Assembly: GCA_036337435.1 (NCBI GenBank)
Contig: JAYZEG010000058.1
Location: 128,001 to 192,000, forward strand
DNA length: 64,000 bases
From: Myxococcota bacterium
Lineage (GTDB): Bacteria > Myxococcota_A > Bradymonadia > UBA7976 > UBA1532
Direction: 5' to 3'
The notes beneath the pieces were generated by a model. It had not been told where the DNA came from, searched no databases, and saw only the letters and a list, made by a program, of their open reading frames with translations. The position numbers were made by a program, and so were the translations under genes. Below, one piece after another: positions 16,938 to 50,549 of the stretch (the first letter of the stretch is position 1; each line of letters begins with the position of its first letter).

Positions 16938-17870
16938 ATGATCAAAGCAATCAATTTAAGTAAATCATATGGACCCGTTGCCGCACTTCGACATGCATCC
17001 TTCGAAATTGGGTCGGGCGAGATTGTCGGTTTTCTCGGACCCAATGGTGCGGGTAAGTCGACGACCATGAAAATACTGACCGGTTTTCTCGCCCCAACCG
17101 ACGGGGAAGCCTGGATCGCAGACCACCCAGTCGACGATCCCAGCGAATCATTTAGATTTAGGGTCGGTTACTTGCCAGAGAACGCACCTCTTTATGGAGA
17201 AATGTCCGTTTCTGATTTTCTTAATTTCGCAAGTCGACTCAAACACATTGAAAAAAAGCATCGAAAGAGTGCTCTTGAGAAAGCCTGTGTTCGATGCGGC
17301 TTAAACGACGTCCTTCACAAGTCCATTGGAGCCCTCTCGAAAGGATACCGTCAACGCGTTGGTCTGGCCCAAGCGATTATTCATGAGCCGAGTGTGCTGA
17401 TCCTGGATGAGCCAACAAGCGGACTTGACCCTAACCAAGTCGAAGATATTCGTCATTTAGTCAGGGAGTATGGCCGACACAATACAGTCCTTTTCAGCAG
17501 CCACATACTCACAGAAGTGCAAGCCGTTGCGACCCGCATACTGGTCATAGATCAAGGCCAAATCGTCGCTGATGATACACCAACAGCATTGATGAATCAG
17601 GTCAGTGCAATCCGTTACGAAATCGCGGTCACTGGCGTATCATCAACAGACTTGTTTGACTGGATGCGTGAACAAGACGGCGTTCTGCACTGTCAATACG
17701 GCGAATCGGAATCCGATAGCGTGCGTGTCATTGTCAGTCTTCAGGATGAGTCTGTAGCACCCTTGTTAGCGAGAGCAGTCATTAACCAAAATTGGGGTTT
17801 GCAGGAATTGGTGAAGGAAAAGGCAGACCTGGAAACTGTCTTTCGGACGCTGACAGGGGGTCCGGTATGA
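16938..17870 (+). CDS. ABC transporter ATP-binding protein, GldA-like
   Basis: GPNGAGKSTT, GYLPENAPLY, LSKGYRQRVG, LDEPTSGLDPNQ and SSH. Confidence 0.92.
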   Translation: MIKAINLSKSYGPVAALRHASFEIGSGEIVGFLGPNGAGKSTTMKILTGFLAPTDGEAWIADHPVDDPSESFRFRVGYLPENAPLYGEMSVSDFLNFASRLKHIEKKHRKSALEKACVRCGLNDVLHKSIGALSKGYRQRVGLAQAIIHEPSVLILDEPTSGLDPNQVEDIRHLVREYGRHNTVLFSSHILTEVQAVATRILVIDQGQIVADDTPTALMNQVSAIRYEIAVTGVSSTDLFDWMREQDGVLHCQYGESESDSVRVIVSLQDESVAPLLARAVINQNWGLQELVKEKADLETVFRTLTGGPV

Positions 17871-18580
17871 CGGTTTTCTGGATTGCAATGCGGGAGCTGG
17901 GGTCTTATTTCAGGCGCCCGATCGCGTACATGGTGGTGTCCGCTTTCCTGATTATGACCGCTCTCTACACCTTTGTTTTGATGCCATTTTTTGTCGTCGG
18001 AAAGGCGAGTCTCGTCTCGTTCTTCGAATTCACGCCGTTTCTATTTACGCTCTTCATTCCGGCGATCACCATGAGGTGCATTGCTGAAGAACGGGCAAGT
18101 GGCATGCTCGAAATCTTGCAAACATGGCCTGTGAGTGACATGAGCTGGGTTCTCGGTAAATTCCTCGGTGCTTATTTACTCGTTTCATTCGCCATCATAC
18201 TGACCTTCGTCTTTCCAATGTGTGTCGCCCCGTTCGGTCCAGTTGATTGGGGCGCGGTCATCGGCGGCTATATCGGTCTATTTCTTCTGGGAGCCGCGTA
18301 TACGGCCCTCGGGATATTTGCCAGTGCTTGGACATCGAATCAAATCATCGGTTTTACAGTCGGATTTACACTGTGCTTCACATTTTTCATCATCGGTCGC
18401 AGCGCCGTATTTCTAGAAGGCGACATACTGTTTCTTGCTGAATTTTTAAGCTTCGAAAGGCGTATTTCGGGGATTTCGCGGGGTGTCTTAGATAGTCGAG
18501 ACCTCGTTTTCTTCATGACCGTAGTAGGCCTGGCACTCGGATTGTCCGCAGAACGGCTGCACGTGAGGCGGTGGCGGTGA
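17867..18580 (+). CDS. ABC-2 type permease, GldF-like
   Basis: RELGSYF..PIAY, PAITMR.IAEER.SG.LE, VLGKF and RGVLDSRD; multiple hydrophobic helices. Confidence 0.88.
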   Translation: MTVFWIAMRELGSYFRRPIAYMVVSAFLIMTALYTFVLMPFFVVGKASLVSFFEFTPFLFTLFIPAITMRCIAEERASGMLEILQTWPVSDMSWVLGKFLGAYLLVSFAIILTFVFPMCVAPFGPVDWGAVIGGYIGLFLLGAAYTALGIFASAWTSNQIIGFTVGFTLCFTFFIIGRSAVFLEGDILFLAEFLSFERRISGISRGVLDSRDLVFFMTVVGLALGLSAERLHVRRWR

Positions 18581-20178
18581 ATCCATCCCGAAAAAAATTA
18601 CGTCGGTCTGCGCTGATTGCCGTGCCCCTCTGGATTCTTGTCAGCCTCCTTGCGAACATCGCTGTCAAAGACACCAGAATCAGATGGGATTTTACATCAA
18701 GTCAACGTCATACCATGAGTTCGGAAAGCATCGAGCTTTTGTCTAGTGCCCGCTCACAAATCTCCGTTAAAGCGTTTCTACCGGGCTCACTCCCACCACC
18801 ATACAGCGATGTCGTCAGGGCCATTAAAACAGGATTAATGACGTTCCGTGCAGAATCACCCGTGCCCTTCGTCGTAGATGTTTTTGACCCATTGGACCCT
18901 GCACTGACAGCTAAGGAAAAAGAAACGCTGGACAAAAATGCTGACGCTTACGGGCTTAAGAAGGCTGATCTTCAAATCATTCGAGCCGATCAGAGAGTTG
19001 GCCTCTCTGTCCATTTTGGACTGGTGATCAACTACGAGTCTAGGCAGGCAATTGTCCCCCTCATTCAAAGACCATCACAGTTTGAGTACGCCTTCGCTCG
19101 AACGCTTCAGGCTGTCCTTAATCGTGACTTCGAAAAGCCTAAAATCGCCTTCAGTCAAGGTCACGGGGAACCCAACGTAGTCGACAGTCCGCTGAAGGCT
19201 GAGTTTTCATCTCTCGGCATGCTCGAATCTATCAAGCTCGATGGAAGCCCAATTCCACGGGATGTAGATGTTCTCGTCATTCTCGGTCCGAAACGATCTT
19301 TCAACAAGGCTGAGCGGTTTGCGATCGATCAGTTCCTGATGCGAGGCAAGAGTTTAGTCGCACTCCTTGATTATCGTCAGCAGAGTACAGTGTATCCGAA
19401 CATCCTGATTAAGAGCCTTACAGGCCTTGAGAGCCTCTTCGAGACATATGGTGTCCAGATTGAAACGGAACTCACTTTTGTCGATCGAATAAATCCATCC
19501 CCCGCACCGATCAAGCGAGATCAAAATGGACAGGTCATCTATTCAAATCATCCCCTTTACTCGCGAATGATGTCTCCGTCACCAGAGCATCCAGCTGTCG
19601 CGAATATGACAAATCTGGTGATGCCTATGGCCAGTCCCATTAAACCGACCGCGTCCGCTCATCAAAATCTCCAAATCGAGCCCATCTTTGTAGGTCCAAA
19701 AGATGTTGTTCTTGCGAACCAAATTGCTCGATTCGAACCCGAGACCTATGTGGTCTCGTCAAATGATGAGGTACCCGGTTACAAAATGGCGGCAGCCATA
19801 ACCCTGAATGGCATTCTGAAATCAGCTCATACCCGTGATGACCAACCCACAAAAATGAACGCTCTACCAGGCTCACCCAATCAAGAGCCGACGGTATTCT
19901 TACCATCGAGCCGTGGCGATTCACGCATACTGATCGCATCCAGTGGAACACGCATGTTGGCGGCCAGTCAGACGGGACTCAGATTTTTTAAAAATGCTGT
20001 TGCTTGGGCATCTATAGATTCAAGCTTAGTGGGCATCCGCGCAAGGGATCGACTTCCTGCGAATCTTGTCAAGACAACATCTACGGATCGGACTGCCATT
20101 CGAATTGTGTCAATTTTTGGACCCGTGCTGCTTCTTGTTTTGGTTGGCTGGATCGCCACCCGGCGTAAGGCGATATGA
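18577..20178 (+). CDS. GldG-like ABC auxiliary membrane protein
   Basis: N-terminal TM, RWDFT...HTMS, FSQGHGE, VLVILGP, AIDQFLMRGK and a C-terminal TM. Start could be 18571. Confidence 0.85.
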   Translation: MNPSRKKLRRSALIAVPLWILVSLLANIAVKDTRIRWDFTSSQRHTMSSESIELLSSARSQISVKAFLPGSLPPPYSDVVRAIKTGLMTFRAESPVPFVVDVFDPLDPALTAKEKETLDKNADAYGLKKADLQIIRADQRVGLSVHFGLVINYESRQAIVPLIQRPSQFEYAFARTLQAVLNRDFEKPKIAFSQGHGEPNVVDSPLKAEFSSLGMLESIKLDGSPIPRDVDVLVILGPKRSFNKAERFAIDQFLMRGKSLVALLDYRQQSTVYPNILIKSLTGLESLFETYGVQIETELTFVDRINPSPAPIKRDQNGQVIYSNHPLYSRMMSPSPEHPAVANMTNLVMPMASPIKPTASAHQNLQIEPIFVGPKDVVLANQIARFEPETYVVSSNDEVPGYKMAAAITLNGILKSAHTRDDQPTKMNALPGSPNQEPTVFLPSSRGDSRILIASSGTRMLAASQTGLRFFKNAVAWASIDSSLVGIRARDRLPANLVKTTSTDRTAIRIVSIFGPVLLLVLVGWIATRRKAI

Positions 20179-21482
20179 TGAATAGCCGGGTTCAGATCCT
20201 TACATGCCTTGCTCTCGGCTTGTTAGCAACCATCGCATTCAACGAGAACCAAGCCTCCAAATCCTCCACAATTCAATTCAGGTTACCAAAGTTGAGCGAT
20301 CTGAATGCCATTAAGATCAGTCAAACCGGCCGTAATGATATCCGCCTGATCCGACAAAACAATGGCTGGACGCTGGGTTCAGGGAATACAGAAATATCCG
20401 AGCGGGCACACACCTCAATGGCAGATTTAATGGCGACACCTCTATCCATGGACATGGACCTGGGCCCTGTGGAAACCCTCGACAAATATGGTCTGGGTGT
20501 CCACTCGCTGACCGTACAGTTCAAAGGTGAATTAACGCAGACAATTCGGGTTGGAAAAGTCGTCAACGATCGGCTCACCTTTATTTATGACGAGAGGTCT
20601 CAGCACGTGTACAGGGCAAGGGGTAATGTACGACGGGTTTTTGATCGAGCAAGAATAGACTGGAGAGAACGGCAGCTCTTTAGCATTGATTACGCATCTG
20701 TCGTCAGCGTGGCATCGAAGACCAAACTCAAACAAACCTGGTCGGCCTCTCGACCAGATTCAGATTCGCTCTGGACCTTTATCGATCCGGAGGACATGGA
20801 CGCCAGTCAGGACGCCATTGCTGCAGTAGTCAATACTTTTGTCCAAGCACGCGCAGCGTCGTTCATGGATGGTTCACAACCCTTCGTGGAAGAGAGGACG
20901 CTCAAAATCATAACGAAGTCCGGCCAGACGTATAAACTCTCATTAGGAAAACCAACCATAGCGGGTCAACTACCCGTTCGGCGCATCACGACAGTCAACG
21001 GCCGAAACCAGACAAGCCCATGGATCGCCATGCTTCCAAAACACCAAGCGATCTTCTTAAATCCGACGCTAGATGACCTCAGAAATAAGCGGGTTTTCGG
21101 ATTCAAGGAAGAGTCAATAGACCGAATCACGTGGACCGGAACCGAAACATTTCAGCTCAGCAAGCGTAATGACAGCTGGATTGTCGACTGGGATAAGAAA
21201 CAAAAAACTCTCGATCGGGCAGCAGCTGATTCATACCGTGAGAATTTTGCCAACCTACGCGCCCTGAAGATCCAATTGATACGACCAGAGAATCCGTTCA
21301 TGAAAAGCAGTTTCACACTGTCTGTCTATCTCAAAAATGGAACAGAGGAACGGGTTTACATCGGACAAAAATATGGGGCTGGGCGACGTATACAAACCCA
21401 TTCGAAACCAAATCAAGTGATGATTTTATCGAAGGCCTCAATGGACATTCTCGTGCCGAATGTGCGTAATTTATTTGATTAA
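20175..21482 (+). CDS. DUF4340-like exported protein
   Basis: N-terminal anchor and repeated W-containing units (LDKYGL, DWRERQLF, DLRNKRVF); usual fourth gene of GldAFG-like operons. Confidence 0.72.
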   Translation: MMNSRVQILTCLALGLLATIAFNENQASKSSTIQFRLPKLSDLNAIKISQTGRNDIRLIRQNNGWTLGSGNTEISERAHTSMADLMATPLSMDMDLGPVETLDKYGLGVHSLTVQFKGELTQTIRVGKVVNDRLTFIYDERSQHVYRARGNVRRVFDRARIDWRERQLFSIDYASVVSVASKTKLKQTWSASRPDSDSLWTFIDPEDMDASQDAIAAVVNTFVQARAASFMDGSQPFVEERTLKIITKSGQTYKLSLGKPTIAGQLPVRRITTVNGRNQTSPWIAMLPKHQAIFLNPTLDDLRNKRVFGFKEESIDRITWTGTETFQLSKRNDSWIVDWDKKQKTLDRAAADSYRENFANLRALKIQLIRPENPFMKSSFTLSVYLKNGTEERVYIGQKYGAGRRIQTHSKPNQVMILSKASMDILVPNVRNLFD

Positions 21483-21520: not shown

Positions 21521-22315
21521 TTAACTTCGGATATCTCGACGTAGATCTTTTCCTATGAGTCGGATGGGCTCACACATTTCCATCAGACGCGAATGGATTC
21601 TTACGCCCACTCGATCGATCAGGTTATCCGACTCACTCCCCTCTGCTTTAGGGAGTACCTCAATTCCATAATTGGTTGTAAACAGTGTGGTTTTCTTAGA
21701 ATTGTAGCGTTTTGTAATCAGTTCATCCAAGACACTTAGTTCCCAGTCTGACCCCCGACCCTTACCGAGTTCATCTATCACCAACAAGGGAACATCAACC
21801 AATGGCTGCATGACGACGTCTGCGTGTCCGCGATCTCCGAAGGTTGCTCGCAAATCAGATAGCAGATGCATAAACTCAATAAATCTGGCTCTAATGCCAC
21901 GACTCAGAATCAGGTATCTCAAAATAGCACATGACAAATAGGTCTTGCCTGTCCCAACCGTACCGTATAGCAAAATGCCCGGGGCACCGGGTTGGTATTC
22001 CCTGACGAACCGCCAAGCCATACGACGGGCATTTGCCATATCAACCGAACCAGAATCTGTCTTAATTTTCGTAAACTCGGCATCATGATATCGGCCTGGA
22101 ATCGATGCCTCATTGTACAATTTCGCTCGTTGACCATAGCGCAGACAGCTGCACTCGATCGCATTTCGATAACCAAATTCATCAGTGTCGTAAATATAGC
22201 CCGAGCCGTCACATGTCGGGCATGGATGCATACACTCACAGACCCGAGAGACCGCAATATGATTGGCTTGATGAACATAAACACCAATTCCATTACATCT
22301 TGGACATTCGGCCAT
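21521..22315 (-). CDS. DnaC/DnaI/IstB-like AAA+ ATPase with N-terminal Cys-rich zinc region (putative helicase loader)
   Basis: CPRC..G...CEC and CPTC..G...CSC, IPGRY, Walker A GTVGTGKT, Walker B LLVIDELG, RYN..KTTLFTTN and RIHSRLMEMC. Confidence 0.88.
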   Translation of the reverse strand: MAECPRCNGIGVYVHQANHIAVSRVCECMHPCPTCDGSGYIYDTDEFGYRNAIECSCLRYGQRAKLYNEASIPGRYHDAEFTKIKTDSGSVDMANARRMAWRFVREYQPGAPGILLYGTVGTGKTYLSCAILRYLILSRGIRARFIEFMHLLSDLRATFGDRGHADVVMQPLVDVPLLVIDELGKGRGSDWELSVLDELITKRYNSKKTTLFTTNYGIEVLPKAEGSESDNLIDRVGVRIHSRLMEMCEPIRLIGKDLRRDIRS

Positions 22316-22975
22316 TTACCAGCCACCTCCCATTCTGATCTCCAGCGCGGGTAATCTCACCAACTTACGGACCGAACGCCTGACAAAAGCTCGCTCCGTC
22401 TCGGTTTGTGTCACAGGATCAAGCCGAGGCATTTGGCTGAGCGTGAGCCGCACATCGCTTTCAATCGAGCGTTTTTGTTCCTCACTCATGCGATCCATAC
22501 ACGCCTCAAGAGTTTGGGTCTCTATTAACTCCAGGCTCGCACCCAAGTCGAGTCCTGTGCCCTTATCGTAATTCCGCTGCAGCTCGACCAAATCTGCCCT
22601 AAGCTTGTTGAACACGGGCAGATAGGGACGTGAATCCGCTGCCAAAAGTAAATCATCGATTTGGGCAAGGAAACCATCAAACCCAGCTGTGACTGACTCA
22701 CAATCAAGGTCTGTAGACAGCTTAGAACCCACCCGGCTATCCCGATAGAGTTGTGCTGCTTTATCAACAGACTTAGAGACGAAAGCCAAACTGCTTACGC
22801 GACGATTCGGCGGTACTTCAAATGCCCGCTTTATGCCCTGAATGACCACATCCTTCGGAATTTGGGCTCGATACCAGCGAGCAACCAGGCTGTGGTCTTT
22901 TGGAGACAGCATCAACCCCCGCCCAGTCGCGCGGATGAATGCTGTCGTAATCGCCTCGAGATAGTCCCGATCCAC
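22316..22975 (-). CDS. Hypothetical protein with DnaD/DBH2-like N-terminal domain
   Basis: Clean 219-aa ORF between gyrB (4 bp gap) and the DnaC-like gene (0 bp gap). The pattern F-x4-GR-x3-LSP-x-D-x5-W...I..A...SL.F resembles the DnaD C-terminal domain. Confidence 0.7.
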   Translation of the reverse strand: MDRDYLEAITTAFIRATGRGLMLSPKDHSLVARWYRAQIPKDVVIQGIKRAFEVPPNRRVSSLAFVSKSVDKAAQLYRDSRVGSKLSTDLDCESVTAGFDGFLAQIDDLLLAADSRPYLPVFNKLRADLVELQRNYDKGTGLDLGASLELIETQTLEACMDRMSEEQKRSIESDVRLTLSQMPRLDPVTQTETERAFVRRSVRKLVRLPALEIRMGGGW

Positions 22976-22979
22976 AACC

Positions 22980-25586
<2,607 letters not shown>

Positions 25587-25759: not shown

Positions 25760-26212
25760 TTAAACAGAGGCGACGATCAAGCGTCGGACACGTTCGTCAC
25801 CTTCGCTAAAAGTCTCAACGGTTTCATCGTCCTTTAGCTTGGTATGAATGATCCGACGTTCAGTCGAATTGAGACCCTCAAAAACAGCCCGCCGACCATT
25901 TCGCACAACGGCACGAGCAACATCATCTGCAGCGACTTCCAACAATTCGCGTCGTGCTTCTAATTGTCCATCGACATCGATCACACAATTCAGCCGTTCC
26001 TGACCGACTCTGCTAATTGCTTGGGACGTCAATACGGTCAACGCGGATACCAGTGCTGGACGCGTTTTCAGTACGTGCGTCTCACCAGACACTTCATAAA
26101 TCACTCGGTCATCGGTCTCTTTGACGGTGAGTTCAACGTCAACGTCAAGGTGTTCGAGAACAGCGTTCAAGAAGGCTTGGCCTGCATTTGATGGATTGAG
26201 TTGCTCACCCAT
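25760..26212 (-). CDS. jag: Short Jag/KhpB (EloR)-like RNA-binding protein, degenerate KH plus R3H
   Basis: R3H motif LNSTERRIIH...TFSEGD and IDVDG linker; immediately downstream of yidC; AAAGGT RBS before ATG 26212. Confidence 0.85.
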   Translation of the reverse strand: MGEQLNPSNAGQAFLNAVLEHLDVDVELTVKETDDRVIYEVSGETHVLKTRPALVSALTVLTSQAISRVGQERLNCVIDVDGQLEARRELLEVAADDVARAVVRNGRRAVFEGLNSTERRIIHTKLKDDETVETFSEGDERVRRLIVASV

Positions 26213-26223
26213 GGATATACCTT

Positions 26224-27987
26224 TCACCGTTTAGCGCGTGCCTTCTGAGGCACGACCGCGTCCTGCTGTCTGTATGAATACCACTGCTGCCCAATACCGA
26301 GAACGGTGTTGACGAGAATATATAAGACCAAACCGCTCGGCAGAAACAGCATCATCGCTGTAAACATGATGGGCATGACCCACATGAGAATTTTGGTTTG
26401 AGTCTGGTCACCAGCAGATGGATTGAGCCGAAACTGAATGATCATCAAGAGACCCAAAAGAACCGGTGTGACATAATACGGATCTTGTTGAGACAAATCG
26501 GTCAACCACCCACCAAAGTGAGCTTGGTATAGTTCGACGGCCGAGTAGATCGTTCGGTAGAGAGCGAAATAAATCGGCATCATCATGACCATGGGTAGAC
26601 ACCCAGCCAGGGGATTGACTTGATGCTCTTTATAGAGCTTCATCATCTCCTGCTGCATCCGGACTTTGTCTTCTGAATGTTTCTCCTGCAGCGCCTTCAT
26701 CAACGGTTGGATTTTCTTCATGGCTGCCATTGATTTGTACTGCTTAATGGTGAGTGGCAAGGTCAGCAGCTTGACAAAGATCGTGAGAATGATGATCGCG
26801 ATGCCCCAATTGGGGATGTACTCGAACGAAAACCTCATGAGCCAAAGCATGGGGACGCAGATCACCGAGAAGAAACCAAAATCGATCGCGTCTCCGAGAG
26901 GGGGCTGTTGGACATTGAGTTCCGATAGTTTTTTCGGCCCACCGTAGAACTTAAATTTCCGAACAACGGATGCACCAGCTTGCCCAGCGGCAGCGAGCGC
27001 ACCAGGCTGAAGCTCAATCCGAGTATAAAGCCGAGAAAAGCCAGGTGGCGTCGACGCACCACTTTCGCCTAAGGACGCAGCACACGACTTGATCTCTGCG
27101 TTCTCCACAAGCAGTGCCGTCATGAAGTACCGATTGTCCATCCCGGCCCAACGAACACCATCGCTAAAGCTGTTCAAATGAGGTTCGCCGTCGTTGATAT
27201 GTTCTGCGATATCAGAAACCGGAAGTCGCTCAAAATCTTCGTTGCGCATGCACAGTGAGTTGAACAGGTTGAGCGGTGGCATAAACATACTGGGCTCGGC
27301 CTCTTTGTTGTTTTGGAGAGCACCAAAGGACGCGTTTAGCGCGTATGTTCGTTGCCGATTAGCCAGGTTGATCAACTCAATCTCGACGTCAACCGTGTAG
27401 GAACTCTTGTCGAGAGAGTACCGTTTGATAACCTTCAGTTGACGCTGATTATCCGTCCACTCTAAGGCAGCAACCCCATCGCCTTCGGTTTTCGCGACTT
27501 TGAAATCGCCAACGATGTCACGACCATCGAATTTGAGGTCCATCTTCGGCGGCAAAAAGTGACTTGTCAGACCATCCGTTGCGCCTTGGCGTCTCGCGAA
27601 GGCAAATGGAGCGGGCTTCTGTTCTGGATCGGTTCCACGGACGCCGTACTGTTCTTCCAAGAGTGTCCACCGACTGATCTGACCATCTAAATTAGACAAC
27701 TCAATCTGCTGTACTTTGCCTGCGCTAAGCTGGGCAATGGCTCGATGCTCGATGGGTGGCTGTTGGATTGCCGAAGTCTCTGCCTCTGCGGGGGACGATG
27801 AGGTGCCCGGTTGCGGGTTGGTTGACGGCACAGTTGGCTGGTTTTTTTTCTCCGCCGCCACCTTTTGCTTGGGCATTGTCTTTACCGGCGGAGGCATCAT
27901 CGACTGCCAAACCATGAGCACAAGAACACTCAAAGCGATGGCCATGACCAGATTTTTTTGATCTAAGTTATTGTCCGGACCGTTCAT
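26224..27987 (-). CDS. yidC: Membrane protein insertase YidC
   Basis: N-terminal TM, large periplasmic domain, FYGGPK, NWGIAII, PLAGCLP, GWLTDLS..DP and PSGLVLY. Confidence 0.97.
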
Positions 27988-28204
27988 TATTCGCCTCAAC
28001 AGGGTCATATCCACCGGCATGTAACGGGTGGCATTTACAAACGCGTTTCAGCGTCAGAAAGCTGCCCCGAAAGAATCCGAAGCGTCTGTATGCAGTAATT
28101 GCGTACTGAGAGCAAGTAGGTTGAAAGCGACACGTTGGTGGAGTCAACGGCGAGATGTAGCGCTGATAACAGCGAATCAGCCAAATACAGAACCGACTCA
28201 ACAC
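27968..28204 (-). CDS. yidD: Membrane protein insertion efficiency factor YidD
   Basis: [17 protein letters not shown] and [13 protein letters not shown]. Confidence 0.97.
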
Positions 28205-28590
28205 GATTTGCGTCTCCCAGAACGTGGCCGCTGCTCGAGTTTATTTTTCAGTTTCACTATCGATGACATCAGCTGATCTTTGACCTGTTCGAAACTTGCT
28301 TCCCCGCGACCGTGCCGAGCCACAAAAACGACCTGGATGCCAGTAGGTAGCTCAACTTGATTTCTACGGAACGACTCACGTATCAGCCTCTTTAGGCGAT
28401 TTCGCACGTGTGCTTTACCCACCTTACGACTGACCGTAATGCCAATTTGAAGGGCATTTGGCCTTGCCCCACGAGCATAGACCACGAAATGCTGTGTGAC
28501 GATGCGGTAGCGACTACGCTGAACCGACAGAAACTGCCGCCTCTTTCTGAGACGCGCCGACTTAGGAAACCGCTCGCCGGTGTGAATCAC
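28198..28590 (-). CDS. rnpA: Ribonuclease P protein component
   Basis: FPKSARL and [23 protein letters not shown]. Confidence 0.96.
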
Positions 28591-28859: not shown

Positions 28860-29280
28860 AGATCGCTCAAAAGCCCAGGAGAGATCGCATAAAAATCAAA
28901 AACCCCATCGCCATGAGACAGCTATACTTCGATTCGGTTATTCACAGATCTTTGTCCAAACCGGGCTCAAGACACAATGTTGAGTCCACCAGATCCATAG
29001 CAAAACAACGGAAAAATAATCGAGTCAAAGCCAACCATCTTGGGATCCATGCACGTCTTGATCGGCGTTTTAGCAGGCAAGTCAAGATTCGGAAGGTGCT
29101 CTGAACCCCCGACTTCATTATGTTTTTTAAAAAGGATCAAAAAGCGGTTGTGACGCGGCTAATCCGCTGTTACTAGATCGGAATGTCGGCGGCGGTCACT
29201 CACCGTCAGGCGACTTTCATTGTAAATCATGGCCGTGTCCAAAGTTATCCACAAAACTGTGGATAACCCTGGGGATAAGT
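28860..29280. promoter_or_regulatory. rpmH-dnaA intergenic region with DnaA boxes (candidate oriC or dnaA autoregulatory region)
   Basis: TTATTCACA 28938-28946, TTATCCACA 29245-29253, TGTGGATAA 29258-29266, TGGGGATAA 29270-29278 (1 mismatch); short AT tract near 29118-29143; eight GATC sites. Confidence 0.7.
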
Positions 29281-30780: not shown

Positions 30781-31614
30781 ATGGTACTTGCGCATTTACT
30801 CATCCTAATCACGGTCTTGAGCTCACCACTTCAATCCACTGAAAAGGATCTCCGGGTGGTGTCGTTGGCACCCTCAAATACAGAACTCATGTTCGCAATT
30901 GGGGCCGAAGACCTCTTGGTCGGCAGAACCTCTCGCTGTAATTATCCAAGTCAGGCAGAGTCGATCACCAATGTCGGCAGTCTTTTTCCTGCAAACTATG
31001 AAAAGATTATCAGCCTGAGACCGGATCTCGTTCTGATGATCGATGGCGACCTTAAGGTCAAGCAGCGTCTGGAAAGTCTGGGCATAAAGATTGTTGTCAT
31101 CCATCCCAAAACAGTTCGAGAGATTGCCAGTTCAATGCGTTTCTTAGGACAGATCACCAATCGGGGAAAACAAGCCGATGACCGCAGCCAATCATTTCTA
31201 AACGCACTAAAGACACTCGATAACAGCCAAACAAGACCGCGAAGAATTCTCTATGAAGTGTGGAACCAACCCCTGATCATTCCGGGACCAAAAACGTTCT
31301 TGGCAGACCTAATTCGGCTCTCTGGAGGACTCCCAATCGGTGGTCAATTATCAGGATCGTGGCCACAAGTGGATTTAGAATGGGCGATGAGTCAAAACCC
31401 TGAGTTCATTCTCGTTCGAAACGCAGAACGAAAAACTTATTTTCTCAATAGTCCAATCTGGAGAGAGACATCGGCCGTAAAGAAAAATCAGGTTTTAGTT
31501 CTTCCCAACGAAGATATTTTTACGAGACCCGGACCGAGGGTACACACAGCGATCAACTGGTTGTCTCACAAGCTCAACACATCTCAGACACAAAAGATGC
31601 GGACCCATGAGTAA
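30781..31614 (+). CDS. Cobalamin/iron-chelate ABC substrate-binding protein (BtuF-like)
   Basis: Signal peptide, RVVSLAPSNTE, GRT..CNYP, EKIISLRPDLV and RPGPR. Confidence 0.85.
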   Translation: MVLAHLLILITVLSSPLQSTEKDLRVVSLAPSNTELMFAIGAEDLLVGRTSRCNYPSQAESITNVGSLFPANYEKIISLRPDLVLMIDGDLKVKQRLESLGIKIVVIHPKTVREIASSMRFLGQITNRGKQADDRSQSFLNALKTLDNSQTRPRRILYEVWNQPLIIPGPKTFLADLIRLSGGLPIGGQLSGSWPQVDLEWAMSQNPEFILVRNAERKTYFLNSPIWRETSAVKKNQVLVLPNEDIFTRPGPRVHTAINWLSHKLNTSQTQKMRTHE

Positions 31615-32635
31615 GTCATCGAAAATCCGGAAGACCAACTCAACAGTCTATATCTCTGGCTTGATGCTGCTGATCCTCGTCGTTTTAGCACTGACCCATC
31701 TAGCCCAGGGAGCCCATCAAATGAGTATGCACGACTTGTGGGCCTGCTTAACGGGTGAGGTCGGTCAGGGTGGTGATAAGACAACGTACACCATTGTGTG
31801 GTCCATCCGGCTTCCGCGTTTACTGACCGCGATCATCGTTGGAAGTAGCCTAGCGGTCTCGGGAGCCGCACTTCAGGGTCTTTTTCGGAATCCCCTCGCG
31901 GATCCTTACGTGCTTGGCATCGCATCGGGGGGTGCCTTCGGGGCTGCTCTAGCAATGCTGCTTTCAACTCAAGTGATTTTCGGAGCGACCACCGGTGCCT
32001 TTCTGGGAGCTGGTATCGCGGGCATGCTGGTCATTGGTTTAGCCAAAGACAGCGCATCTTATAGACTCAATTCGATTTTGCTGGCTGGTGTCGCCGTGGG
32101 TCTCATTTTTTCAGCACTGCTTTCGCTGGTCTTGGTCTTCGCCGAACGGCAAGCCGGCGATATGTTGTCTTGGTTACTAGGCCATGTAGGCCACACAAAT
32201 TGGACACAATTGTCCGTCATGGCGTCCCTGACCTTAATGGGCACAATCGCGATTCAATCCAATGCCAATGCCCTGGATGTTGCCTTGCTCGGTGAAGGCG
32301 CAGCGCAAGGTATCGGTGTTCAATTCTCAAAATTAAAAATAACCGTTCTACTCGCCACATTCATTCTGGTATCGAGCGCGGTTGCCTATTGTGGAATTAT
32401 TGGTTTTGTGGGGCTGGTCGTGCCTCACACCGTGCGTCTCTTGGCGGGACCATCACATAAATATCTCATTGGCCTTTCAGCCATTGGCGGTGCTATTTTG
32501 TTGGTCGCAGCAGATCTAATTGCCCGTCTAATCCTTCCAGAGCGCGAATTGCCCGTCGGCGTAATTACAGCCTTGATTGGAGGACCTTTCTTCCTATTCC
32601 TCCTAAGAAAGGATAACCAATATGCTAGTCGTTGA
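31607..32635 (+). CDS. FecCD/BtuC-family ABC permease
   Basis: IRLPR, QGLFRNPLADPYVLG, GIIGFVGLVVPH and ELPVGVITALIGGPFF. Confidence 0.92.
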   Translation: MSKSSKIRKTNSTVYISGLMLLILVVLALTHLAQGAHQMSMHDLWACLTGEVGQGGDKTTYTIVWSIRLPRLLTAIIVGSSLAVSGAALQGLFRNPLADPYVLGIASGGAFGAALAMLLSTQVIFGATTGAFLGAGIAGMLVIGLAKDSASYRLNSILLAGVAVGLIFSALLSLVLVFAERQAGDMLSWLLGHVGHTNWTQLSVMASLTLMGTIAIQSNANALDVALLGEGAAQGIGVQFSKLKITVLLATFILVSSAVAYCGIIGFVGLVVPHTVRLLAGPSHKYLIGLSAIGGAILLVAADLIARLILPERELPVGVITALIGGPFFLFLLRKDNQYASR

Positions 32636-33386
32636 CGGGCTTCGAACCCAGTATTGTATCGAGGATCCGCTCAGTTTTACTGTCAACCGCGGTGAGATGG
32701 TGGCCATAATTGGCCCGAATGGTGCCGGTAAAACAACGCTGATTAAAGCGATATCTGCCCAAATAAATCTCGAAGCTGGACACGTTTCGATAGCCAACCG
32801 ATTCATCAGCGACCTATCATTTCGCGATCGCGGTCAGATTTTGGCGTTAGTCAATCAGTATGAGTCCAAACCCCAGGGCTTCACTTTAAGACAATTCGTC
32901 GAGATGGGTCGATATGCACACCGTCCAGCCTGGGGTCCACTTTCGGAAAAAGACCGGCACATGGTCGAACTCAGTTTGAGACGCGCTCATGTCTGGCAAT
33001 TGAGCACAAGCCTGATTACGGCTGTGAGTGGTGGAGAATACCAACGCGCTCGGATCGCACGTGCTCTGGCACAAGAGCCACAGCTTCTGATTTTAGACGA
33101 ACCGATGGCGCACTTGGATATTGCGCATCGGCACCAAGTTGCCAAATTGCTCAGACAGCTCAATCGAGACGAGGAACTGACGGTGATCGCTGCTGTGCAT
33201 GATCTCAATCTAGCCGCCTCATATTTCGACCGAGTGATCATGCTGTGTGATGGAACCATATCGGCCGAGGGCACAATCGAGGATGTGATGACAAGCGAAC
33301 GATTGAGCCAAACCTTTGGAGTCCCACTCACTCATGTGGTCCATCCTACGTCAGGTCGCCCCCAGTTTTTGGGTGTAGATTTATGA
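32622..33386 (+). CDS. FecE/BtuD-family ABC ATP-binding protein
   Basis: GPNGAGKTT, SGGEYQR, LDEPMAHLD and HDLNLA. Confidence 0.92.
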   Translation: MLVVDGLRTQYCIEDPLSFTVNRGEMVAIIGPNGAGKTTLIKAISAQINLEAGHVSIANRFISDLSFRDRGQILALVNQYESKPQGFTLRQFVEMGRYAHRPAWGPLSEKDRHMVELSLRRAHVWQLSTSLITAVSGGEYQRARIARALAQEPQLLILDEPMAHLDIAHRHQVAKLLRQLNRDEELTVIAAVHDLNLAASYFDRVIMLCDGTISAEGTIEDVMTSERLSQTFGVPLTHVVHPTSGRPQFLGVDL

Positions 33387-49211: not shown

Positions 49212-50549
49212 TTACTGTTCAAATTCACGCTTTAGATTTACGAAACGGCTGTGTTCGATAAAGAACTTCAGTTTGACTGTACCCAAAGGTCCGTTTCGCT
49301 GCTTTGCGACGATAAGTTCAGCGAGCCCTTTATCCTCAGAATCCTCGTTGTAGTATTCATCACGGTAAACAAACATGATGATGTCAGCGTCTTGCTCTAT
49401 CGCACCAGACTCTCGCAGATCCGACATCATTGGCCTTTTGTTGGGCCGACTTTCGACGCCTCGATTGAGCTGCGATAATGCCACAACCGGAATACCCAGC
49501 TCCTTTGCCAAACCCTTTAGGTTCCGGCTGATCTCACTGATTTCTTGTTCACGACTCTTGGCTGTCGGTGAGCGCATCAATTGGAGATAATCGATGAGAA
49601 CAAGACCAAGTGGTGGTAAATTGCGGTCGCTTGCGAGCCGTCGACACTTCGATCGAACCTCCATAATTGTCGAACCAGCTGTATCATCTATCTCGATGGA
49701 CCAATCATTCATACGCCTTACCGCAGCGACAAGTCTCTCGATATCCTGGTTGACCAAATGTCCTGTCCTCATAGAACGAGAGTTGACTTCAGCCTCGCAG
49801 GCGAGCATCCGAGCAGCAAGCTGGGCCGTCGGCATCTCAAGACTAAAAACAGCCACCGTACACCCTGACATCCGTGCAGCATTACTGGCCATATTGAGCG
49901 CAACCGCAGTTTTACCCATACCGGGACGTCCAGCCAGAATGACCAAGTCACCCGGGTTTAGGCCACTGGTCAAGTTATCCAGATCCGTGAATCCCGTGGG
50001 CGTTCCCGTCACCGCAATCTTATTCTCAAAGGCATTTCGGACGTTATCAAGGACGTCTTTGAGCGCATCGTTCATGGCGACGAAACTGCCCTGATTTTGC
50101 TTCGCTCCAATCTCAAAAATCAGTTGCTGAGCCTCGTCGAATAAGATGGTTTGATCCTCGTAATCGCCACCCTGGGCTTTCTCGACAACACTGGTACAGG
50201 CGGAGATCAAGCGACGAAGCTCGGCCAGGTCGTGGACGATCTTCGCATGGTGTCCCACGTTGATTGCGGTCGCAGAAGTTTGGTCTAGGGCCAGCAGATA
50301 TTCCATGCCGCCGATATCTTCAAGCTGACTCTGCTGGTCAAGCCTGGTTGCGAGCGTCACTGTATCGATGGGTTTGCTTTCATCCGACAGCGAGATCATC
50401 GCCTCAAAAATGATTTTATTCTGAGGCAGATAGAAATCGTCATGACCCAGTGATTCAGCCACTCGATCAAGCGCGCCATTATCGAGTAAAATCGCGCCTA
50501 ATACGGCTTGTTCAGCTTCCCTAGCCTCTAGATGGCGACCGACAGACAT
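49212..50549 (-). CDS. dnaB: Replicative DNA helicase DnaB
   Basis: EAEQAVLGAIL, GRPGMGKT, FSLEM, IDYLQL, LSQLNR, DLRESGAIEQDAD and KQRNGP. Confidence 0.98.
   Translation of the reverse strand: MSVGRHLEAREAEQAVLGAILLDNGALDRVAESLGHDDFYLPQNKIIFEAMISLSDESKPIDTVTLATRLDQQSQLEDIGGMEYLLALDQTSATAINVGHHAKIVHDLAELRRLISACTSVVEKAQGGDYEDQTILFDEAQQLIFEIGAKQNQGSFVAMNDALKDVLDNVRNAFENKIAVTGTPTGFTDLDNLTSGLNPGDLVILAGRPGMGKTAVALNMASNAARMSGCTVAVFSLEMPTAQLAARMLACEAEVNSRSMRTGHLVNQDIERLVAAVRRMNDWSIEIDDTAGSTIMEVRSKCRRLASDRNLPPLGLVLIDYLQLMRSPTAKSREQEISEISRNLKGLAKELGIPVVALSQLNRGVESRPNKRPMMSDLRESGAIEQDADIIMFVYRDEYYNEDSEDKGLAELIVAKQRNGPLGTVKLKFFIEHSRFVNLKREFEQ

Follow-up and report, generated by a model that had tools for sequence, protein, structure and literature searches.

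Results

Two genes follow gyrB near dnaA

The DNA analysed here, called the window throughout, is a stretch of 64,000 nucleotides from a Myxococcota bacterium whose genome is a metagenome-assembled genome (MAG) of 4.38 Mb in 95 contigs, 87% complete; the G+C content of the window is about 50%. The subject is a pair of genes, P1 and P2, that follow gyrB on the same strand (Table 1). P1 starts 4 bp after the stop of gyrB, and P2 begins directly after the stop of P1 (gap of 0 bp); dnaA, 6.3 kb from P1, lies on the opposite strand. The original prediction for this DNA had read the two genes as a possible domesticated chromosomal pair of a DBH2-type protein and a helicase loader; the gaps that it gave are exact, its distance of about 6 kb from dnaA agrees with ours, and the peptide that it quoted, AFIRATGRGLMLSPKDHSLVARWYRAQIPKDVVIQGIKRAF...VSSLAFV, is present at P1 residues 12-66. 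It had also described surroundings free of phage, transposase and integrase genes, and Pfam scans of 57 open reading frames (ORFs) of the window (11 + 46 ORFs; 64 kb) bore this out, with 0 transposase, integrase or phage structural genes. On the evidence set out below, we consider it likely that the two proteins make up a phage-type module for helicase loading that is resident in the genome and passed on vertically.

Table 1. Features of the window discussed in the text (positions are those of the window; aa, amino acids)
Feature	Position	Strand	Basis or motifs
P2, 264 aa, ATG start, DnaC/DnaI-type AAA+ ATPase, stop included	21521..22315	-	PF01695
P2 AAA+ module, residues ~66-264	21524..22120	-	Walker A G121-T125, Walker B D181-E182, N215, R235, R239
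P2 N-terminal Cys module, residues 1-60	22136..22315	-	CxxCxGxG, CxC, CxxCxGxG, CxC
P1, 219 aa, GTG start, stop codon included	22316..22975	-	ORF reading
P1 C-terminal domain, residues 92-219, helical bundle and conserved LPxL tail, predicted P2-binding part	22319..22702	-	
P1 N-terminal domain, residues 1-90, four-helix, probably remotely DnaD/DDBH2-like	22706..22975	-	
gyrB, 861 aa, first gene of the gyrB-P1-P2 run	22980..25565	-	Pfam DNA_gyraseB 4e-59, Toprim, HATPase_c
Jag/R3H gene	25760..26227	-	
yidC	26224..28020	-	
rnpA	28198..28590	-	
Four DnaA-box-like 9-mers just upstream of dnaA	28938..29278	no strand	TTATCCACA, <=1 mismatch
dnaA	29308..30660	+	Pfam Bac_DnaA 2.5e-69, Bac_DnaA_C, DnaA_N
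DnaB-type replicative helicase, presumed client, downstream of rplI	49212..50549	-	Pfam DnaB_C 3e-105, DnaB 4.5e-32

P2 is an AAA+ ATPase of the DnaC/DnaI type with an eight-cysteine module

Judged by its sequence, P2 is a resident AAA+ protein of the DnaC/DnaI type; it is orthologous neither to DnaC of E. coli nor to DnaI of Bacillus, and it is not a helper protein of the insertion sequence IS21. It belongs to Pfam family PF01695 (IstB_IS21; 47.3 bits at a cut-off of 24.1, residues 112-219), and in the source genome it is the only protein besides DnaA to exceed the cut-off of that model. When solved chains were compared with a P2 profile of 34 relatives, the scores ran from Aquifex DnaC (E = 7e-39, 137 bits), to the AAA+ domain of which the AAA+ module of P2 aligns along its length, through E. 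coli DnaC (4e-27, 98.7 bits; the chain is that of the DnaB-DnaC complex entry) and DnaI-type chains (1e-22 to 8e-18; for DnaI, 5e-22 and 8e-18, 81.9 and 68.1 bits) to IstB (1.4e-13, 54.2 bits). As in the loaders of E. coli, Aquifex aeolicus and Bacillus, the Walker A and B motifs and the sensor and arginine residues are conserved: G121, G123, K124, T125, D181, E182, N215, R235 and R239 are invariant in the 34 aligned relatives, and the ATPase motifs are thus intact.

P2 departs from those loaders in its N-terminal module, which is of a DnaJ-like, double CxxCxGxG kind with the pattern C4xxC7xGxG, C26xC28, C32xxC35xGxG, C55xC57. All eight cysteines (4, 7, 26, 28, 32, 35, 55 and 57) are invariant or at least 90% conserved in the same relatives, and the match to DnaJ_CXXCXGXG (PF00684) is weak (23 bits, below the cut-off of 32.7). 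To our knowledge, the N-terminal domain of DnaI is not of the double CxxCxGxG kind. The two-site cysteine module joined to an ATPase of this clade is what the original prediction had described.

The NCBIfam models matched P2 in the order PRK08116 (DnaC-like, 2e-34), PRK06835 (DnaC-like, 9e-26), DnaI (5e-18), IS21 helper (1.6e-17) and DnaC (1.7e-15), and P2 stays below the curated cut-off of every one of these listed models: it scores 118.9 against 189 for the best of them, PRK08116, 57.3 against 357 for the DnaC equivalog PRK07952 and 65.4 against 228 for the DnaI equivalog PRK08939. An assignment of P2 as the IS21 IstB helper was tried and rejected (NF038214, 63.9 against a cut-off of 200; transposase genes are absent among the 57 ORFs scanned).

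Phage proteins provide the closest parallels to the two genes together. PHROG 50, annotated as DnaC-like helicase loader, matches P2 residues 4-262 at 4.5e-47, and the best identities of P2 among 50,697 phage records are about 25-31%. The same family pairing in the same order, a DnaD-like gene and then a DnaC-like one (PHROGs 7498 and 50 in our comparison), is found in phage modules such as gp38-gp39 of Bacillus phage Palmer, although gp39 is only 26% identical to P2, and, since their alignment starts at P2 residue 33, it lacks the first cysteine cluster. P1 for its part has a single weak match in the phage records (E = 0.5), and the pair of the window, unlike the phage modules, is chromosomal, stands beside gyrB and is inherited across families.

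These likenesses raise the question of whether the pair is a remnant of a mobile element, that is, an IS21 IstB helper or a prophage replication module without a function for the host. PF01695 is named after IstB, the IS21 helper model does match P2, and the nearest analogues of the gene pair are those of phages. On the other hand, the IstB structures fall far below DnaC, the score for the IS21 helper model is less than a third of its cut-off, identity to phage proteins reaches no more than about 31%, no transposase, integrase or phage gene occurs within 64 kb, and the pair is single-copy and keeps the same place beside gyrB across many families (see below). Grouping with IS21 IstB or with recent prophage proteins had been set as a test by the original prediction, and P2 groups with neither; we give the remnant explanation almost no credence.

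P1 has an N-terminal domain that is probably remotely DnaD-like and a C-terminal domain outside known families

No Pfam or NCBIfam model matches P1, and its relatives were gathered by an exhaustive search of 1.84 billion proteins, which returned 328 representatives at E<=1e-3, nearly all of 200-250 aa, against only 3 from a word-indexed search. The GTG start is supported because Y5, F13 and G18, which lie upstream of the first internal methionine, are conserved among 133 aligned relatives. P1 evolves much faster than its neighbours: its identity to the proteins of three genomes of the same genus is 74, 41 and 36%, while P2 stands at 95, 74 and 62% there. The AlphaFold (AF2) model built with 116 relatives has a predicted local distance difference test score (pLDDT) of 93.2 and is thus confident. 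It is all-helical: residues 3-84 form four helices and residues 92-206 a bundle of helices, after which comes a tail.

Searches with the whole protein gave no specific match. The profile of the whole P1 family found only coiled-coil and designed-helix noise among the sequences of the PDB, all from the C-terminal half; Foldseek returned nothing at E<=1e-3 for the whole model, and VIA-align only generic helical bundles, over residues 85-217. Because neither structure search of the whole model gave a specific match, the N-terminal domain was folded alone; DnaD domains were then among its fold matches and a DnaB_2 cluster among its Atlas structure neighbours. The nearest ESM Atlas structure to residues 1-90 is that of a 138-aa hypothetical cluster with 866 members, commonest in Acidobacteriota (template modeling (TM) score 0.89) and tagged PF29728, so that the domain may belong to a wider, recently named family. 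The C-terminal domain has a counterpart in no known family; its search of the Atlas structures gave no score >=0.9 and no named family.

Profile comparisons of P1 and of its N-terminal domain point to DnaD. The two best PHROG matches of P1 are both annotated as DnaD-like helicase loader (3.8e-4 and 0.024; 5e-5 and 0.0096 with the N-terminal domain alone), and the commonest Pfam family among P1 relatives is DnaB_2 (PF07261), found in 16 of 116 at E<=1, the next family being found in 3; one relative of 113 exceeds the DnaB_2 cut-off (22.9 against 22 bits), its residues 16-79 lying on profile positions 5-59. With hhalign, and a template built from 20 DnaD-like proteins to which the phage Palmer protein had led, P1 residues 20-84 align to residues 167-222 of the Palmer DnaD-like protein, inside its DnaB_2 domain (160-228). 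The P value is 0.005-0.0061 for whole P1 and 0.0014 for the N-terminal domain alone, whose score is 25.8; the template when reversed scores 12.3, and none of 120 column-shuffled templates scores above 20.1. The profile-profile similarity to DnaB_2 is therefore weak but consistent, and in register, and it makes a remote relationship of the N-terminal domain of P1 to DDBH2 probable.

P1 and P2 are predicted to bind each other

The prediction of the P1-P2 complex reached an interaction prediction score from aligned errors (ipSAE) of 0.71 (0.67, 0.71 and 0.72 in three runs), where the best of three controls gave 0.00; of 157 solved complexes, 116 attain the mark applied to this score, as do 2 of 215 mismatched pairs, a calibration that holds only roughly for a model made, as here, from unpaired custom alignments. 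At least 63% of contacts agree between the runs, and the partner pLDDT is at least 79. In the predicted interface, P1 residues 143-149, 178-200 and 210-219 lie on residues 91-109, 138-141, 217-219 and 250-254 of the P2 ATPase, and the P1 tail taking part in it carries a nearly invariant P209; the N-terminal domain of P1 is not the part that touches P2. Since we know of no solved complex of this kind, the result probably does not stem from a memorised structure. The model thus supports binding of P1 to P2.

The pair is kept across families of Myxococcota

The distribution of the pair was followed in a phylum sample of 251 genomes, each at least 85% complete and with the source genome included, in which presence was called with a P1 profile, a P2 profile at E<=1e-30 and the Pfam model of DciA (PF05258). 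P1 is found in 133 of these genomes, P2 in 141 and DciA in 153. The two genes occur together in 130, of which 50 also have DciA and 80 do not; P2 stands alone in 11 genomes, P1 alone in 2 and DciA alone in 102, one genome combines DciA with a weak C-terminal match to P1, and in 5 none of the three is found. The pair is thus missing from about half of the Myxococcota genomes in the sample. As the profiles match so many genomes, nearly always in single copy, P1 and P2 are real genes and no chance ORFs. The pair is also not sporadic, its presence being almost uniform by family, which was a further point on which the original prediction could have failed.

Linkage was examined in the best 80 loci found with the P2 alignment, of which 51 have a P1 homologue immediately ahead of P2, and 35 of these have gyrB ahead of the pair; in loci of the phylum, gyrB is directly upstream of P1-P2 in 23 of 30. 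The remaining 29 of the 80 have no P1 upstream (3 are too short to judge), many of them labelled Bradymonadales, and the ORFs upstream of P2 in such loci are unrelated to P1 (E>=0.006 against the P1 profile). In six loci labelled Bradymonadales or Myxococcales (L070, L073, L076, L080, L096 and L110), the gene before P2 is by eye YbeY-like (LLTDD...ELN..WR....PTDVLSF), and in five others (L091, L093, L105, L115 and L116) it encodes a signal-peptide protein. The labels of the best 80 are mainly those of Myxococcota, Myxococcales, Bradymonadia and Bradymonadales MAGs and of the genera Lujinxingia, Persicimonas and Microvenator, together with Nannocystaceae and Anaeromyxobacter MAGs and a few of SAR324, Lambdaproteobacteria, Dadabacteria, Oligoflexales and others.

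Within the family of the window, P1 was matched in 24 of 24 genomes, and the order gyrB-P1-P2 is intact in 9 of 11 loci. The two exceptions belong to one genus (L010 and L012, from G010 and G021) and have P1 after gyrB with no P2 within 1.5 kb downstream by tblastn. In another family, f6, the genes are unlinked: in two genomes assembled as one contig, the distance between them is about 0.5 and 2.2 Mb, and seven f6 loci have neither gyrB nor P2 within 1.5 kb of P1. That both genes are kept in f6 although unlinked points to selection on each of them. Taken together, the sequences indicate that the pair is resident, vertically inherited and widely kept across families.

DciA is partly, not strictly, exclusive with the pair

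The presence pattern of the pair and DciA is almost uniform within taxonomic families. Some have the pair and no DciA, namely f14 (P1 20/20, DciA 0/20), f23 (12/12 and 0/12) and f29 (P2 15/15, DciA 0/15); others have both systems, namely f1, the family of the window (P1 14/14, DciA 13/14), and f6 (24/24 and 23/24); and f8, f18, f20, f27 and f28 have DciA only. DciA scores lower where the pair is also present (E values of about 1e-4 to 1e-16) than in DciA-only genomes (mostly 1e-14 to 1e-22). The anticorrelation between the pair and DciA is therefore partial: of the pattern for which the original prediction had proposed a survey, the 91 of 141 P2 genomes that have no detectable DciA are examples, and the 50 in which P1, P2 and DciA coexist are not.

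In the source genome (G000, 87% complete), the Pfam DciA model at E<=5, the DciA-like ORFs of two relatives and the gene that flanks DciA in G001 found nothing convincing, and three queries found no DciA in G002 (81% complete), its closest relative, either. Elsewhere in the genus of the window, a DciA-like gene scores 46 bits in G003 (L133:1312-2001, minus strand) and 24.1 bits, equal to the Pfam cut-off, in G001 (L134:1321-1761, minus strand). This pattern may reflect decay or loss in progress, or else gaps of incomplete MAGs. Neither P1 nor P2 matches PF05258. Neither gyrB nor dnaA lies within 1.5 kb of the DciA locus in four genomes with DciA only and in three relatives, so that a swap in place beside gyrB is not supported.

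The coexistence of the two systems can be explained if the pair is auxiliary, serving PriA-dependent restart or a special growth state, while helicase loading at oriC falls to DciA or to an equivalent that escaped detection. DciA accompanies the pair in 50 of 130 pair genomes, including 13 of 14 in the family of the window and 23 of 24 in f6; PriA is encoded in the source genome; and in Bacillus, DnaD, DnaB and DnaI are described as serving in restart as well (Marston et al. 2010, PMC2978336). This explanation has to contend with the P2 genomes that lack detectable DciA, among them whole families uniform at 0/20, 0/12, 0/15 and 0/10, with the finding that only 5 of 251 genomes have neither system, with the failure to detect DciA in the source genome or G002, and with the position of the pair in the origin region beside gyrB. 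We think an auxiliary role unlikely. In the 91 P2 genomes without detectable DciA, the P1-P2 module is most likely the main loader, whereas in the 50 genomes that also have DciA the two may share the work.

Surroundings of the pair

Besides the genes of Table 1, Pfam scans identified an ATP synthase operon, parA, parB, gidB, a bactofilin gene and an ABC transporter in the window. The classical dnaA-dnaN-recF-gyrB cluster is scattered: dnaN is not 3' of dnaA, where genes for a periplasmic binding protein, a FecCD permease and an ABC ATPase are found instead (30781-33386), and neither recF nor gyrA adjoins gyrB. The DnaA-box-like 9-mers resembling TTATCCACA with at most one mismatch are at 28938, 29245, 29258 and 29270, within 340 bp between rnpA and dnaA; the whole window has 24 such matches where 12.8 are expected, and the cluster is probably oriC or the dnaA promoter. 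On the other side of the pair, genes for an ABC ATPase, an ABC-2 permease, ABC_transp_aux and DUF4340 (16938-21482) converge on P2, and the DUF4340 gene keeps its place downstream of P2 in several relatives (e.g., L052-L054, L056, L057, L063 and L075). The stretch of DNA itself occurs in marine and seawater metagenomes from at least ten studies.

Discussion

A proposed helicase-loading module of two proteins

The reading that we favor, a resident helicase-loading module of P1 and P2, is built on the gene structure, family relations, conservation, co-distribution and predicted P1-P2 interface obtained in this analysis, and the earlier reading of a domesticated chromosomal DBH2-plus-loader pair is supported by them, with the caveats given below. 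The activities proposed next, namely the binding of zinc, of the helicase and of DNA or DnaA, as well as DnaB loading itself and a role at oriC or in restart, are drawn by analogy with characterised loaders. P2 would be the ATP-driven loader acting on the DnaB-type helicase encoded in the window. In analogy to the zinc-binding N-terminal domain of DnaI, the module of eight cysteines would bind two zinc ions and be the part that touches the helicase; by analogy with DnaI and DnaC, P2 would assemble on the helicase through its AAA+ domain, using ATP. P1 would be the adaptor, gripping the P2 ATPase with its helical C-terminal domain and with the conserved tail. Through its DnaD-like N-terminal domain it would bind DNA, DnaA or both at oriC, or else PriA or another restart factor, and thereby bring the loader-helicase complex to the right DNA. 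The order of a DnaD-like and then a DnaC-like gene, as in phage Palmer, agrees with a phage module having been domesticated as a whole long ago.

Several observations weigh against this reading: (i) 11 genomes have P2 and no detectable P1; (ii) the presence of DciA in 50 of 130 pair genomes, including nearly all of the family of the window, implies that the pair need not be the origin loader, and at 87% completeness the lack of DciA in the source genome is uncertain; (iii) the complex model has the alignments and rough calibration described above; (iv) the short contigs from RNA libraries (four metatranscriptome libraries, three studies) that cover parts of P1 and P2 with 98-100% identity (21826-22001, 22333-22489, 22520-22753 and 22776-22988) are no proof of transcription, as no contig reaches across a gene junction by 31 letters and carried-over DNA may be their source; and (v) P1 has no match to PF07261 (DnaB_2) at E<=0.01, nor at E<=10 in a six-frame search, has no DDBH1 domain of DnaD in its AF2 model, and does not keep the hallmark motif of DDBH2, YxxxIxxxW (PMC2978336), the P1 family having Y/F65, V70 and W/Y/H77 (F65, V70 and Y77 in the window), with spacings of 5 + 7 in place of 4 + 4. 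The claimed DBH2 likeness of P1 is supported with caveats: the PHROG matches, the DnaB_2 matches of relatives and hhalign uphold it, while the score of P1 itself, below the Pfam cut-off, and the missing motif do not.

P1 might instead be unrelated to DnaD; the four helices of its N-terminal domain would then be a bundle of a generic kind, such as one resembling an AAA+ lid, and the protein some other regulator or adaptor of P2. The agreement of PHROG, of Pfam on the relatives and of hhalign with its shuffled controls on both family and register speaks against a generic bundle, as do the gene order shared with phage modules and the complex model, in which the N-terminal domain does not touch P2; we rate this alternative as improbable. 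A remote relationship to DDBH2 does not make P1 an orthologue of the Firmicutes proteins, and it is not an orthologue of DnaD or DnaB. Like Bacillus DnaD and DnaB, P1 has a small helical domain, possibly of similar fold, that aligns in register with DnaB_2, and its gene is paired with that of a DnaC/DnaI-type loader. It differs from them in that the DnaD-like domain is N-terminal and not C-terminal and stands without DDBH1 and YxxxIxxxW, in that it is followed by a helical bundle outside known families, and in its host, which is a member of the Myxococcota and not of the Firmicutes.

Comparison with known replacements of DciA

The survey of Brezellec et al. (2016; PMC5109545) describes DciA as ancestral and as replaced at least seven times, in five phyla, by phage-derived loaders of the DnaC/DnaI type, termed dna[CI]; the domestications that it lists are those of Enterobacteriales, Aeromonadales, Alteromonadales, Clostridia, Bacilli, Aquificae and Chloroflexi, with Tenericutes unclear. 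According to the same survey, dciA often lies between recF and gyrB or adjoins gyrB (15 of 23 phyla), and none of 1,426 genomes has both dciA and dna[CI]. P2 resembles the dna[CI] genes described there in being chromosomal, resident, of apparent phage ancestry and often found where DciA is missing. It differs in that its lineage is outside the seven domestications listed, and in that 50 of 251 genomes hold the pair and DciA together, where the survey reports no genome with both. With DciA itself, the pair shares the presumed task and a place beside gyrB that recalls the one reported for dciA, and has no sequence relation.

A further replacement is described for Vibrionaceae, in which the phage-derived loaders VdhL1/2 took the place of DciA in what are termed nonhomologous replacements (PMC11087808). 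The parallel to P1 and P2 is that a phage-derived loader supplants DciA and phage homologues adjoin dnaD-like genes; the lineage is another. For taxa of the Myxococcota/Bradymonadales type, we found no account of such a loader in the open-access literature, and the original prediction, which knew of no characterised example in this group, stands in this respect.

Significance

Helicase loading in most bacteria is an open question. If the function proposed here is confirmed, P1 would represent a new family of helicase co-loaders, and the pair would add to the picture of DciA replacement a large lineage, represented by about half of the 251 sampled Myxococcota genomes, as well as a DnaD-like partner of new architecture from outside the Firmicutes. 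Pairs of similar appearance are found, too, in MAGs labelled SAR324, Dadabacteria, Lambdaproteobacteria and Oligoflexales. Of most interest is the way in which the pair and DciA are distributed in three states. This may represent the domestication, on the scale of a phylum, of a phage module made up of a DnaD-like adaptor of new architecture and a DnaC-like loader with a Cys module, caught at three stages, with DciA only, with both systems and with the pair only; we put this forward tentatively, at somewhat less than even chances. If true, it would mean that DciA and DnaC/DnaI-type loaders are not strictly exclusive, contrary to what has been reported, and cultured carriers of both systems would allow a direct test of the loss of DciA after the arrival of a loader. 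The cultured genera that carry P2 according to the labels of their loci (Lujinxingia, Persicimonas and Microvenator) make the question testable.

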